In this document: piece by piece, positions 23,381-28,224 of the stretch | How the letters are laid out: each line of letters starts with the position of its first letter | Position numbering within the stretch: position 1 is the first letter of the stretch | Assembly: GCA_963662405.2 (NCBI GenBank) | Contig: CAXXKT010000001.1 | Location: 1-64,000 of the forward strand | Origin: Syntrophales bacterium | GTDB lineage: Bacteria > Desulfobacterota > Syntrophia > Syntrophales > UBA2210 | DNA length: 64,000 nt | Direction: 5' to 3' | Program-made: the position numbers and the translations under genes | The notes under the pieces: generated by a model | Seen by the model: the letters and a program-made list of their open reading frames with translations, nothing else | The model's database searches: none | Told to the model about the DNA's origin: nothing

Positions 23381-23541
23381 TAACTTTCTAATATTATTAA
23401 ACACTCATAGATATCAGACCACAAATTTATTTTGATGAATTAAGTGTTATGTCCCCCGAATTCCCATTAGCTGGTAAGATTTTTTCGAAAAAATCAATCC
23501 GTCCCCTTTTACTGCCTTTTGCTCTCATCTACTCTTACGTT

Positions 23542-24249
23542 TTAATAGAAGTTATACTGAAGGCTTAGAAAGAATGAGGCTATTTTCGGTTCTACCATGG
23601 TTTTATCAGAAAGAACGCCACGTATCGCATCGATCTGTGTTTCCCGATATCTGGTTTGCTCATATCCCATTTTTGCCGTAAATTGCGCCGTGATGTCATA
23701 GGCCAGCCCCAGTCCCAGTGTATACCCAAAAAGACGCCGACCGGCATTGTAATTGGTCGATGTGGGGGAAGACTTAACAAAATCAAAATCACCATAGGCC
23801 AGACCTAGCTTGCCAAAAACGGACAGGCCCTTATACAGATAGACCCCGGGCATCAGGTCCATACCCGCTGAATAATTTATGGTATTGGTGAATCTGCTTG
23901 AACCGGCTGACAACTCGAATTCACCATCATACACGTCAAAAGAAACCTGTCCCCCAAGGTAGAATGCCTCCCAGGGTATTTGATAGCCGAGGAACAGGCC
24001 ATAAGCATTGGCAGTGTACTTATTTTTGAACCGGGAGTCTTCCACGAGAGCCCCATTTGCCAAGCGGGTGAAACCGGTCTGCATATTGATATCCTGATTT
24101 CCGTATTTGAACCCCATAAAGACGTGGCCTGGTGTATTGGCATTCTCGCTGGCAGCATCTCCGGCATAAACAAGGCCTGGCGAAACGATCAGGGGTAAGA
24201 GAATAATTGCATAAACCGCAAGGCGAATGGATATCATTTGAAGTTTCAT
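23542..24249 (-). CDS. Outer-membrane beta-barrel protein
   Basis: Signal peptide, alternating beta strands (GLGLAYDIT), C-terminal LQYNFY. Confidence 0.75.
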   Translation of the reverse strand: MKLQMISIRLAVYAIILLPLIVSPGLVYAGDAASENANTPGHVFMGFKYGNQDINMQTGFTRLANGALVEDSRFKNKYTANAYGLFLGYQIPWEAFYLGGQVSFDVYDGEFELSAGSSRFTNTINYSAGMDLMPGVYLYKGLSVFGKLGLAYGDFDFVKSSPTSTNYNAGRRLFGYTLGLGLAYDITAQFTAKMGYEQTRYRETQIDAIRGVLSDKTMVEPKIASFFLSLQYNFY

Positions 24250-24309
24250 TGTATCTCCTATAAAAAGTCAATTCATGGAGAGCCTGTCAAACAGGCCCAT
24301 GGTTAAAAT

Positions 24310-25422
24310 TTAAACGGCCAAAGCATAACACCTCGCAACCTTACTCATCTCTACATATTTCGGGTCTGGCAGCATTTTCGATGGATCAAACGGCTCCCCC
24401 TTCTTCAAGATGGCATATACAATAGTGCTCATCTTTCGCGCCGTCGCTATTACGCTCTTCCCGGTTCCCTTGTTCTCTTTCATGGCTTTGTATTTGTACA
24501 TAAGCCAATATCCATCGGTTTTATTCCGAAGCCGTAGCATCCCCATTACCATTTGCACAAAAGCCGTCCTCAGTTCCACGGGGCCTCGCTTGGTAATATG
24601 ACCATGGCGAATGGTCTTGTTGGAGTTTTGAACCCATGGTACCAAACCGGCATGAGCAGCATACTGCTTGGCGCTCTCATATCGGTTGATGTCATCGGTA
24701 TAAGCCCGAATCGTCGCTGCTGTTATTATTCCAACGCCAGGAATCGTTTGCAACAGAGCAACATCCTCGTCTTCAGAAACAAGATCAGATAATACGCGCT
24801 CAAGTCCTTTGACCTCGGATGCAATTTGGTCTATTGTACCAAGAAGCGGTTTTACCGCTCGGGCAGCGTTTCCGTAACTCCTATGGTCCGCGAGACCGTC
24901 AAGGATTCGCTGCCTTTCTTTTTTGCTCTGCAGCTGTCCCCGCCGACTCTCTATCCCATATCCAAGCAATAAACCGTGTATCTGGTTTTTCAAGGATACC
25001 AAAGCTTTCACCAGAACAGAACGTGACTTGAGAAGCCTTCGAATGTCCTCGCTTTCCTGCGAACAAAGAATGGACTCGGGAAGCATATCTTTCTCAAGAA
25101 ACTCAGCCAATGTGCGGGAATCATGCTTGTCAGTCTTTTTTACTGACTCATTTACAACCTTGAATTTCAAGGTGTTCACTATCTTGACCTCAATCCCCGC
25201 CTTCAAAAACCGGTTGCGAAAGTGTCGGGTGTTCCCTGTTGATTCCACCGCTGCCGTGACCTCGTAACCGCCCTCATTCCAGTTGGACACCTTCATGATA
25301 AATGCCCGGTAACCTCGATCAGTCGTCGGGTAGATGCCCGACTCCTGAACACTCCGATCTTCACTCAAACAACAAACGGTAAACTGCGTCTTGTGAAGGT
25401 CAACCCCGATACTCATCTTCAT
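24310..25422 (-). CDS. IS110 family transposase (DEDD bridge recombinase)
   Basis: GVDLHK, VESTG, KTDKHDS, LQTIPGVG, AGLVPWVQNS, GHITKRG; SD GAGGAGG before ATG 25422. Confidence 0.93.
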   Translation of the reverse strand: MKMSIGVDLHKTQFTVCCLSEDRSVQESGIYPTTDRGYRAFIMKVSNWNEGGYEVTAAVESTGNTRHFRNRFLKAGIEVKIVNTLKFKVVNESVKKTDKHDSRTLAEFLEKDMLPESILCSQESEDIRRLLKSRSVLVKALVSLKNQIHGLLLGYGIESRRGQLQSKKERQRILDGLADHRSYGNAARAVKPLLGTIDQIASEVKGLERVLSDLVSEDEDVALLQTIPGVGIITAATIRAYTDDINRYESAKQYAAHAGLVPWVQNSNKTIRHGHITKRGPVELRTAFVQMVMGMLRLRNKTDGYWLMYKYKAMKENKGTGKSVIATARKMSTIVYAILKKGEPFDPSKMLPDPKYVEMSKVARCYALAV

Positions 25423-25429
25423 AGAACGC

Positions 25430-25625
25430 CTCCTCACATCTTGGACAGCGCCTGTCAGGTGAATTGGTCCCAATCTCCTATTCGATCTCGAAGATCATTG
25501 AATGTTGCGGCTACAGCTCTTCATTCTCCTTTGCGGTCTCGAAGACCAGTAAACATGTCGAACAGTAGCCTTGCTGCCCAAAACTATAAAGTTTCAAACA
25601 GTGTATCCCAATTCACAGCTCATGA
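25430..25625 (-). ncRNA. Putative IS110 bridge RNA
   Basis: Two TTCGA-capped hairpins (GGTCTTCGAGACC, GATCTTCGAGATC) flanked by segments matching target and donor junctions; closing stem GGCTAC/GTAGCC; ends approximate. Confidence 0.7.
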
Positions 25626-25913
25626 AGACTTTTTATCATTCCTCCTTTTAAAAGTTATGTGTTGTGTCCCTCGAACTTACGAACTTTTTAATAATTAAGT
25701 AAGGTGTCCCCGGAACTTGGAACTCTTAATGCTATCGCTACCGTTACATGCCAATATTAACAATAAGAAGATAACCCATAGTGTTTTTGTGATACCACTG
25801 AAAATATTTATTATTTTTGACATGTTAAGTTTCGAAATACTAAACATCAATAAAATACCTCTCCTAAATGGGGGTAGGGTTACCTATGGTGTCTTGGGGG
25901 CATCTCCCACCGC

Positions 25914-27089
25914 TCAAAGGGGAGAGTTTACAACCATTGCTAACAATCCATACATCATACTGAAAACCTTCTTATGAGCCAAGGAATGATTCCCAGCGGT
26001 AAACACAATCACCATATCCTGATCGGGATAAACAAAGATGCGCTGGCCGCCCCAGCCGTCCGCCACGGGTAATTCTTTTTTTTCACCATTTATTTTAATG
26101 GTATACAGCCACCACTGGTATCCATACCCTGTTAAATATAATGGATATAGGTTGATATGTCTTTTTGTTGCTTCTTCAACCCATCTGGCAGATACAATTT
26201 GGCGCCCCTGCCACTTACCCTTATTCGCAAAAACATATCCCAGTTTTGCCATATCCCTGGGACGAAGGGACAGGCCACCATCTGTTCTGAGTACTTCCTG
26301 TTTATCATCCCAGTACCCCCATTCATATTTTTGGATTCCCAGCGGCCCGAACAAATGCTTCTTGGCGAAATCTTTGACCTTCATATGCGACCTTTTTTCA
26401 ATGATTCGGCCCAGTAAGATGGAAAGTCCGCCATTATATGTAAATATTTCTCCCGGTTCTTCTGTTATCGGCCTGCTGAGAATGTACCGGATAATATTCT
26501 CTCTTTCCGGCCCCAGCATCTCCCAGTATGGATTTCTGCTGTCGCTGTACAGATATGTCGTCTCATCCCAGTCAAAACCGGCAGACATGGATAACACATG
26601 TCTCAGTTTAATCTTTCTGCCGTTATCACCAAGCAATTCCCTGTACTCAGGAAAAAAAGAAATAAGTTCTTCATCCGCTCCTTTGACCAGTCCCTTATCC
26701 ATGGCGATACCGATTAACGTGGATGTCACGCTTTTGGTCACCGACATAACACTATGCAGGTCATCACGGGTAAACGTTTTTTCACTTTTCATATAATCGC
26801 TACCTGTGAAATACTCTTCCAAAACGAGTTTCCCATTTTTAACAATCAGTATGCTATGAATATCTTTATAGTCATCATTTAAAATATTTTGAACAAGCTC
26901 AGCCAGCAATGTTTCATCGAGATTGACCTCTGAAAGAGTGGCTGTCTGCCATCCATCATGGATTTGCTCGGGCACAGTATAGTGATACAAAATCGCGGGA
27001 TCTCTTTTGACTGAAACACCGGAACAGGCTGAAACAAGAACTGTAAGAATAACAATGTACAATACTTTTTTTAGTCTTTCGATTTTCAT
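25914..27089 (-). CDS. Lipoprotein serine hydrolase (beta-lactamase class C-like fold)
   Basis: Lipobox VSAC; SVTK, FTYN, LRPRDMAKLG, YGYQWW, GWGGQ. Confidence 0.88.
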   Translation of the reverse strand: MKIERLKKVLYIVILTVLVSACSGVSVKRDPAILYHYTVPEQIHDGWQTATLSEVNLDETLLAELVQNILNDDYKDIHSILIVKNGKLVLEEYFTGSDYMKSEKTFTRDDLHSVMSVTKSVTSTLIGIAMDKGLVKGADEELISFFPEYRELLGDNGRKIKLRHVLSMSAGFDWDETTYLYSDSRNPYWEMLGPERENIIRYILSRPITEEPGEIFTYNGGLSILLGRIIEKRSHMKVKDFAKKHLFGPLGIQKYEWGYWDDKQEVLRTDGGLSLRPRDMAKLGYVFANKGKWQGRQIVSARWVEEATKRHINLYPLYLTGYGYQWWLYTIKINGEKKELPVADGWGGQRIFVYPDQDMVIVFTAGNHSLAHKKVFSMMYGLLAMVVNSPL

Positions 27090-27488: not shown

Positions 27489-28224
27489 GGGTCTTGACTA
27501 GAACAGCACACGGAAATATGTTAAGAGTCTAGTCATGTCAATAAGTAACAAGTATGTAAAAAATTCCAAAATTTCAGAGGCAAAATTTAGAGAGATCGTG
27601 AAGTATTTTGCCTTCGATTTGGATGCTCAAACCATCGCTCTTTTAACAAAACTCAATAGAAATACGGTGAATCGATATCTGTCTTTGATTCGTCAACGTA
27701 TAGCTGATCTGTGCGAAGAAGAATCACCATTTCAGGGTGAAATCGAGGTTGACGAATCATATTTCGGTGCAAAACGTATCAAAGGGAAACGAGGCCGTGG
27801 GGCCGGGAGAAAAACCCCTGTATTCGGTATCCTGCAACGAAAAGGCAGTGTCTATACCGAAATCGTTCCCGATTGCGCCAGGAAGACTCTCCAGGCCATT
27901 ATCAGGGGCAAAGTTGAACCGAATAGTGTCATACATTCAGATAGTTGGAGAGGCTATGATGGTTTGGTTGACTTGGGATACAAAAAGCATTACCGTGTTC
28001 ATCACGGAGCCAATGAATTTGCCAGGGGGAAAAGCCACATCAATGGCATTGAATCCTTCTGGTCATTCGCAAAACGGAGGCTGATGAAGTTCCATGGTAT
28101 TCCACAATCAACCTTTTACCTGCATCTCAAGGAATGTGAGTTCCGGTTCAACAACCGTAACACCGATATCTATAAATTGTTGTTAAAGAACTTCAAAAAT
28201 AAACCGCTGTTCTAGTCAAGACCC
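27489..28224 (+). mobile_element. IS1595 family (IS1016 group) element, second copy
   Basis: Same TIR and length; 8-bp TSD TTTATCAT (27481-27488, 28225-28232). Confidence 0.92.
27535..28215 (+). CDS. IS1595 family transposase
   Basis: Protein identical to 18624-19304. Confidence 0.93.
   Translation: MSISNKYVKNSKISEAKFREIVKYFAFDLDAQTIALLTKLNRNTVNRYLSLIRQRIADLCEEESPFQGEIEVDESYFGAKRIKGKRGRGAGRKTPVFGILQRKGSVYTEIVPDCARKTLQAIIRGKVEPNSVIHSDSWRGYDGLVDLGYKKHYRVHHGANEFARGKSHINGIESFWSFAKRRLMKFHGIPQSTFYLHLKECEFRFNNRNTDIYKLLLKNFKNKPLF

Follow-up and report, generated by a model that had tools for sequence, protein, structure and literature searches.

The DNA analyzed here is a window of 64,000 nucleotides from a Syntrophales bacterium (assembly GCA_963662405.2, contig CAXXKT010000001.1, positions 1 to 64,000), to which all coordinates refer, and our subject within it is an IS110-family insertion sequence of 1387 bp at 24255-25641 on the minus strand. 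The element lies between the Shine-Dalgarno sequence and the start codon of a beta-barrel gene, open reading frame (ORF) 23542-24249, which matches the Pfam families OMP_b-brl and OmpA_membrane. An initial annotation, made from the letters alone, had proposed that this element carries a bridge RNA programmed for just such junctions, and every sequence feature it had named was present where it had placed it. The element and the host site consist of the following parts.

24255..25641, minus strand: whole insertion sequence, from GAATGATAAAAAG (25641) to TTTTTATAGGAG (24255), with limits taken from nine genomic copies
24310..25422, minus strand: transposase (bridge recombinase), 370 aa, with Pfam PF01548 (DEDD_Tnp_IS110) and PF02371 (Transposase_20)
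25423..25641, minus strand: upstream non-coding region of 219 nt predicted to encode the bridge (seek) RNA, conserved in 62 distinct relatives
24255..24271, minus strand: right end TTGACTTTTTATAGGAG, a -35-like TTGACT followed by a replacement Shine-Dalgarno AGGAG, kept in relatives
25627..25636, with its partner at 24260-24269: subterminal inverted repeat, 10 nt, perfect, 5 nt from each tip
25642..25648, minus strand: left target, the host Shine-Dalgarno AAAGGAG, which now precedes the left end of the element and matches the left target guide
24247..24254, minus strand: right target, the spacer ATACA and the ATG of the beta-barrel gene

An insertion sequence between a ribosome-binding site and a start codon

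The host genome (3.80 Mb, three contigs) holds nine copies of the element, 100% identical save for one single-nucleotide polymorphism, in L009. Similarity between the copies stopped exactly at GAATGATAAAAAG and TTTTTATAGGAG, and because AGGAG is common to the target and the right end, the limits carry an ambiguity of 5 nt. The span of 24247-25650 given in the initial annotation did contain the element, although it also took in the host ATG and the host Shine-Dalgarno. Neither solo ends nor miniature copies were found in this genome.

Removal of the element gives AAAAGGAG-ATACA-ATG, as had been said before. A contig from a marine sediment metagenome (run X4, record 13, depth 3.4) matches the start of the barrel gene through 24259 and is unlike the element from there on; on the gene-sense strand it reads ...AATAAAA-AGGAG-ATACA-ATG (AAAAAGGAG-ATACA-ATG) without interruption. 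Going by its sequence, we take this contig to be a natural empty site in a close relative. A search for the orthologous empty site in seven genomes of the same genus (completeness 88-100%) gave no DNA match to the start of the barrel gene.

All nine copies in the genome have AAGGAG directly upstream, and eight of them AAAGGAG. Downstream, an ATG follows the element within 5-9 nt in eight of nine copies. The right flanks of four copies read ATACA-ATG, TTAAAAAT-ATG, GAAGAC-ATG and TAAAT-ATG; four others read AGGACAC-ATG, AAGGAAG-ATG, GGAACT-ATG and GAGGTATTG-ATG, and the ninth has no nearby ATG. In seven of the nine copies the downstream ATG opens an ORF of 71-239 aa that is co-directional with the transposase. 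To judge how selective this is, we compared occupied with free AAAGGAG sites of the same genome. Gene-start-like sites made up 254 of the 917 free sites (27.7%) and seven of the nine occupied ones (binomial P = 0.0026), and an ATG at 3-10 nt was present at 280 of 917 free sites (30.5%) versus eight of nine occupied sites (P = 0.0005). The Shine-Dalgarno-ATG spacing at the occupied sites was 5, 5, 6, 6, 7, 7, 8 and 9 nt, with one site lacking an ATG. The fixed spacing of five bases in the initial annotation thus did not hold: seven of the nine copies lie at sites other than SD-N5-ATG (SD, Shine-Dalgarno), the very kind of insertion it had named as speaking against its proposal. Its broader claim, that a bridge-RNA element is programmed for translation-initiation signals and tolerates differences in the spacer, agrees with the AAGGAG found at nine of nine sites, the ATG found at eight of nine, and the covariation of the guides described below.

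The right end of the element was ATAGGAG in 127 of 128 parsed loci of relatives, and both TTGACT in the right end and TAAAAA in the left end are kept in relatives. In an excised circle, TTGACT would stand 17 nt ahead of TAAAAA, making the pair a candidate junction promoter. Measured from the inverted repeat, the terminal extensions are 5 and 5 nt, or 7 and 3 nt if an AG core is counted on the left, the position of the crossover within AGGAG being ambiguous. No intrinsic terminator was found between the stop codon of the transposase and the right end, and in the same analysis the count of four promoter-like motifs was not above that of shuffled sequences (2.4 ± 1.4).

We also made several side observations at the ends and flanks. 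The inserted left end places GA-ATG after the host Shine-Dalgarno and so opens an 8-codon frame to TGA (window 25635-25609, minus strand); relatives with the left end GCACG or GAACG do not have this ATG, and it is therefore probably dispensable. In the relative L060 the final ~30 nt of the right end (...TTTTTATAGGAG twice) are tandemly duplicated ahead of the host ATG. The left flank at 25650-25730 contains repeated GTTCG / GGGACAC-like units, where metagenome contigs of run X1 have a variant join. In one contig of run X3, 41 nt of the right end are fused to a GGAATTCC-type repeat. The four runs compared consist of contigs, and none of the 23 runs considered was listed as RNA.

The transposase matched PF01548 (E = 8e-19), PF02371 (E = 3e-20) and the NCBIfam model NF033542, "IS110 family RNA-guided transposase", with 228.9 bits (cut-off 140). 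Its Tnp domain aligned to the solved IS621 and ISCro4 recombinases with E ~1e-18. Residues D8, E60, D98 and D101 and the Ser of VQNSNK stand opposite the catalytic residues of IS621, with a weak alignment at the N-terminus (5.5-7.9 bits). The element thus has the RuvC-like DEDD and Tnp domains, the catalytic D/E/D/D and Ser, and the non-coding loops matching target and donor by which the IS110 family is recognized. Elsewhere in the window, the ORF list includes a 226-aa ORF at 27535-28215 on the plus strand, which we presume may be another transposase.

Guide RNA and its match to the Shine-Dalgarno sequence

The longer of the two non-coding stretches of the element lies upstream of the transposase gene (219 nt at 25423-25641, versus 55 nt downstream at 24255-24309). 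Its parts, all on the minus strand, are listed here in the order in which the RNA would be read.

25565-25570 and 25509-25514: GGCTAC/GTAGCC stem, described in the initial annotation and present
25548..25557: target loop 5' strand, CAUGUUUACU (CATGTTTACT in the feature check), with invariant CAU followed by three bases that form the putative right target guide, reading NNN-ATG
25535..25547: target-loop hairpin GGTCTTCGAGACC, 98.7% paired, four of five pairs with a compensatory change
25526..25532: left target guide AAAGGAG, on the 3' strand of the target loop, showing covariation with the left flank at positions -7 and -6
25500..25504: right donor guide CAUUC (CATTC in DNA), the complement of GAATG, the element's first 5 nt
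25484..25496: donor-loop hairpin GATCTTCGAGATC, 100% paired, three of four pairs with a compensatory change
25475..25481: left donor guide AUAGGAG, the same sequence as the element's final 7 nt, invariant in 62 of 62 sequences

The target loop accordingly reads 5'-CAU GUUUACU-[hairpin]-GC AAAGGAG A-3' and the donor loop 5'-CAUUC AAU-[hairpin]-GA AUAGGAG A-3'. In both loops the complements of the top strand (CAUG.., CAUUC) come 5', and AAAGGAG and AUAGGAG come 3'.

To evaluate these assignments, we used about 130 relatives from at least five phyla. A genome scan gave 77 loci at 31-91% identity, 50 of which were parsed (L022-L071), the others (L072-L098) being left out as truncated or ≤37% identical. 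Their hosts were Desulfobacterales, Spirochaetia, Treponema, Leptospira, Dehalococcoidales and Dysgonomonadaceae metagenome-assembled genomes (MAGs), with one MAG labelled Gracilibacteria. A metagenome scan contributed 80 relatives, kept out of 260 and all parsed. Across 139 loci we obtained the left target guide for 113 and the right flank for 120, with L060 corrected by hand.

The fold we propose from 62 distinct sequences has five helices: a basal stem (25608-25616/25459-25467), a 5' hairpin, the GGCUAC/GUAGCC arm, which holds inner GUUC/GAGC and CA/UG pairs, and the two terminal hairpins. In the alignment, 93.4% of cells were paired and 25 of the 41 pairs showed a compensatory change, whereas controls in which one partner was slid reached at most 41%. 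These changes support the fold, which includes the stem and the two hairpins named in the initial annotation. A scan of 23500-26500 against Rfam at E ≤ 1 returned no family.

A second pairing became apparent in the same alignment. The 3' arm of the 5' hairpin (25573-25582) has a second potential partner immediately 5' of the Shine-Dalgarno of the transposase gene (25440-25449, both on the minus strand), and this alternative helix had 92.6% of cells paired, with compensatory changes in nine of ten pairs across the 62 sequences. It is incompatible with the 5' hairpin and crosses the basal stem, and it may be a switch between a guide-RNA fold and an mRNA fold.

We next compared each guide with the DNA that it would read. 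For the donor loop, the right donor guide on the 5' strand was a perfect complement of the element's first 5 nt in 99 of 104 loci, which together held six variants of the pentamer. A related arrangement occurs inside the transposase ORF, where GGTCTCGCGGACC-ATAGGAG (~24879-24898, minus strand) forms a hairpin plus ATAGGAG resembling the 3' half of the donor loop; it is found in ~25 relatives of at least ~68% identity, in which the loop changes and the AGG codon is retained, and is absent from more distant relatives.

For the left target guide, 87 distinct guide-flank pairs with 18 guide types were available, and we shuffled guide types among site sets to obtain a background. Position -7 matched the flank in 0.76 of pairs versus 0.27 after shuffling (p = 0.0002), and position -6 in 0.96 versus 0.61 (p = 0.0004); positions -8 and -9 showed no covariation with the flank, and positions -5 to -1 are the invariant AGGAG. 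Matches over all seven positions were found in 68 of 90 pairs and over six of seven in a further 20. On the Shine-Dalgarno side, then, the alignment of homologues' flanks that the initial annotation had put forward as a check came out in its favor. Because the guides covary with the flanks in relatives and the fold is supported by compensatory changes, the matches between guide and flank are beyond chance.

In a 52%-identical relative (L071), the guide is UUGAGAG, the flank TTTAGAG and the right end ATAGGAG, and the bases common to target and donor shrink to GAG; a crossover at the final AG would fit this case. Read on the opposite strand, the target of our element is CATGTTTA-CT-CCTTT, that is, with a CT core like that of IS621.

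These matches might in principle be incidental, the site being picked by the recombinase protein itself or by a host factor present at translation starts. Nothing specific speaks for this explanation beyond the fact that AGGAG is invariant in both guides and targets, so that covariation is silent over those five bases. It is countered by the covariation of guide positions -7 and -6 with the flanks and of the donor guide with the left end, and by the RNA guidance of the family wherever it has been tested in the parts of the literature used here (PMC11208160, PMC11208158, PMC11187229), and we consider it very improbable. That the guide RNA targets the Shine-Dalgarno sequence is, from this comparison of sequences, close to certain. 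Overall, we put at about 0.8 the probability that we are dealing with a recently active insertion sequence of the IS110 family (IS1111-like) which its own upstream bridge/seek RNA directs to two translation signals of a host gene.

The left flanks also include a distinctive group in Spirochaetia. In one Spirochaetia genome, a miniature element lies in the ~110-150 nt directly upstream of the full element at L030, L031 and L037 (partly also at L036 and L040); it starts AGGAG|GAATGATAAAA and ends ...TTTnTATAGGAG, and it shares its tips with the insertion sequence but has no transposase. It looks like a derivative resembling miniature inverted-repeat transposable elements (MITEs), whose rebuilt ribosome-binding site was hit again, and such a second hit would therefore account for the left flank TTATAGGAG in nine of 15 Spirochaetia sites.

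Probable recognition of the start codon

In the pooled set of 93 distinct sites, an ATG was present at 3-10 nt in 89. The spacing after GGAG was 5 nt in 17 sites, 6 in 50, 7 in nine, 8 in seven and 9 in three, with an overall range of 3-12. Enrichment of a nearby ATG, as expected from the AGGAG-N5-ATG pattern of the initial annotation, was thus borne out, but N6 and not N5 is the prevailing spacer. We asked whether the ATG is read by the RNA or lies nearby for another reason. The explanation that competes with direct reading holds that only the Shine-Dalgarno half is read, through an NNAGGAG half-match, with the ATG nearby through selection and CAU a structural part of the RNA. Surviving AAGGAG sites would then mostly be real ribosome-binding sites, intragenic insertions being lost and rebuilt sites tolerated.

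In relatives, the 5' strand of the target loop has an invariant GYUCGNCAU followed by seven bases, v1-v7. When sites were aligned on the ATG, v1, v2 and v3 matched positions -1, -2 and -3 with an excess of +0.20, +0.21 and +0.10 (p = 0.001, <0.001 and 0.02), and off-diagonal pairs of guide and site positions were null with one exception (p = 0.039). The mapping that fitted best was the reverse complement (p = 0.0002), compared with 0.02 for the forward, 0.76 for the reversed and 0.78 for the complement-only mapping. The contingency tables were of Watson-Crick type: opposite v3 = C stood G in 5 of 6 cases, opposite v1 = U stood A in 18 of 30, and opposite v1 = A stood T in 8 of 15. The signal persisted at sites with a spacing other than 6 (p = 0.001-0.04) and under permutation within clades defined by the donor hairpin (p = 0.0001). 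This position-specific covariation is the chief argument against a reading of the Shine-Dalgarno half alone.

Two further results point the same way. At the ten sites with no ATG, or with a nearest ATG that opens no 50-aa ORF, an ATG stood exactly 6 nt away in five (P = 2e-7, a post hoc figure). Gene starts with GTG or TTG and no ATG made up none of the 93 pooled sites, compared with 24 of 199 free gene-start-like AAAGGAG sites in our genome, although other hosts may differ. Selection would, moreover, spare insertions at AAGGAG sites that lie between genes and do not serve as ribosome-binding sites.

Other observations weigh against direct reading of the start codon, and most of them speak for recognition of the Shine-Dalgarno half alone. 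The bases v4-v7 (TTACT in this copy) showed no covariation in any register tried, so a guide running continuously from the core to the ATG, as AAAGGAG-TAAAC-ATG in the initial annotation, is not supported. At v1-v3 the match is ~50% per position against a background of ~30%, a bias and not a strict rule. In 62 of 62 sequences the predicted fold pairs the CA of CAU with an invariant internal UG, so CAU could be structural; its invariance is beyond the reach of covariation. The spacing varies from 3 to 12 nt, and in the Spirochaetia genome the spacing of free TAGGAG..ATG sites also peaks at 6 (23 of 90, counted by hand among the 100 matches listed of 203). Two copies in our own genome fit poorly: C1:2112892 lies within a 524-aa open frame of the opposite strand, yet has an ATG 6 nt away, and C2:378265 lies at the end of a 125-aa frame with no ATG nearby. 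Flanks were parsed by regular expressions and non-fitting loci dropped. Insertion through a half-match is reported for IS621, where partial matching suffices for recombination (10.64898/2026.08.31.748434), and the IS621 structures, as described in the parts of PMC11208158 used here, offer no parallel for a guide whose distance from the crossover varies.

Several candidate arguments were discarded. Spacing was dropped as proof that the ATG is read, given the same peak among free Spirochaetia sites; a control with the reversed pattern gave 162 matches against 203 in that genome, so most of these free sites are due to chance. Registers of the target loop 5' strand anchored on the crossover gave no convincing covariation at shifts -1, 0, 2 and 3 (p = 0.07-0.36), and shift 1 reached p = 0.009 solely through the one position at which, for a spacing of 6, this register and the ATG register fall together. 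We also rejected a role of CAU as handshake guide to the ATG in GAATG, since CAU is unchanged in relatives with left ends GCACG or GAACG.

Taking both sides together, we regard direct reading of the start codon by the guide RNA as probable, and recognition of the Shine-Dalgarno half alone as unlikely. The specific geometry in which one guide reads the Shine-Dalgarno by the crossover and the other reads NNN-ATG 5-9 nt off, with the spacer looped out, is a tentative proposal to which we would give slightly less than even odds.

The mechanism we propose is as follows. The donor loop would hold the joined ends of the circle, AUAGGAG matching the right end and CAUUC pairing with the GAATG of the left end. 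The target loop would read two translation signals of the host gene, namely the Shine-Dalgarno sequence and, less strictly, the start codon together with its three preceding bases; on its 5' strand, the invariant CAU and about three programmable bases would pair with the ATG and positions -1 to -3, 5-9 nt on and mostly 6. Recombination at the shared AG would then place the element between the Shine-Dalgarno and the ATG, co-oriented with the host gene. Because the right end terminates in ATAGGAG, a Shine-Dalgarno sequence would be rebuilt for the host gene, which would keep an AGGAG at the original distance from its ATG. Transcription from the host would read into the guide RNA and the transposase gene, and since no intrinsic terminator lies between the transposase stop and the right end, the host gene could still be expressed by read-through. 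That a poor right half is tolerated is in line with the half-match recombination reported for IS621 (10.64898/2026.08.31.748434).

Relation to known elements and meaning

We compared the element with described IS110-family systems, using parts of the papers cited by accession. As in IS621 and ISCro4 (Durrant 2024, Hiraizumi 2024), the guide RNA has two loops and is encoded ahead of the recombinase gene, a hairpin in each loop is flanked by a left and a right guide, the guides include the core, and the recombinase carries the DEDD and Ser residues. In IS621, the left target guide (bottom strand, nt 50-58) precedes the hairpin and the right target guide (top strand, nt 77-80) follows it (PMC11208158), whereas the order of guides is reversed in each loop of the present element. 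The strongly read half of our element is 7 nt long, on the side where IS621 reads 4, and the other half is apparently read at a variable distance from the core, unlike in IS621/ISCro4. The present donor loop is also predicted to sit in a multi-branch junction closed by the basal stem and not in a stem-loop of its own. The IS110 type proper lacks subterminal inverted repeats, whereas this element has its perfect 10-nt repeat. IS621, the model adopted in the initial annotation, is thus not the closest one: reversed guide order and a subterminal inverted repeat are both features of IS1111-type elements.

The seekRNA elements of the IS1111 type (ISEc11, ISKpn4, ISPa11; Siddiquee 2024, PMC11187229) resemble our element in their subterminal inverted repeats, in a circle-junction promoter (predicted here; such promoters are known for IS621, PMC11208158, and ISEc11, PMC11187229), in terminal extensions of 7 and 3 nt, provided that the AG core is counted on the left, and in a seekRNA segment complementary to the top strand that lies 5' of the bottom-strand one. 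They differ in having the non-coding region downstream of the transposase gene, where ours is upstream, with a few exceptions in the type such as ISMtsp17; in a repeat that is usually 11-13 nt, compared with 10 here; and in their targets, which are attC, repetitive extragenic palindromic (REP) or short linear sites and not ribosome-binding sites (all PMC11187229, in the parts used). Judged by sequence, the ends and the guide order are IS1111-like rather than IS621-like, though the RNA precedes the transposase gene, an IS110-type arrangement.

Targets of this class have been described before. IS900 and IS901, IS110-family elements of Mycobacterium avium, insert between a Shine-Dalgarno and a start codon (PMC2942039, citing Doran 1997 and Inglis 2003), as the present element does in eight of nine copies and the pooled sites do in 89 of 93; the elements are compared by description only. 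The target motif of IS900, CATGNNNNNNTCTCCTT, is the reverse complement of AAGGAGA-N6-CATG, and its hed frame, on the strand opposite the transposase, has no ribosome-binding site or start codon of its own and uses host signals (PMC8141618). Because the published motif follows the element's own orientation and hed uses the host signals from the opposite strand, the IS900 transposase points against the target gene, whereas the present element is co-oriented with it in all copies. No guide RNA is described for IS900 or IS901 in the parts of PMC2942039 and PMC8141618 consulted. We found no paper that links a bridge or seek RNA to Shine-Dalgarno/start-codon targeting; the text of PMC11208160, in the parts used, does not mention one, and its supplements, with target motifs per guide, may hold one.

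For this family, our analysis offers an RNA-level explanation of the old observation that some IS110-family elements insert between a ribosome-binding site and a start codon. The element would then exemplify natural guides adjusted to a class of targets that is universal, abundant and low in damage, and it may restore the ribosome-binding site that its insertion splits and ride on host transcription. It also combines traits thought to divide the IS110 type from the IS1111 type. The split, gapped geometry that we propose is undescribed for bridge or seek RNAs. Should the distance at which the start codon is read indeed vary, bridge recombinases would be less rigid in their geometry than has been assumed, which would be relevant to the prediction of off-targets and to the design of these enzymes. 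If recognition is split in this way, every bacterial gene that starts with ATG and is led by a Shine-Dalgarno sequence would be a safe landing site, which would account for both the clade's spread among phyla and its MITE-like derivatives.

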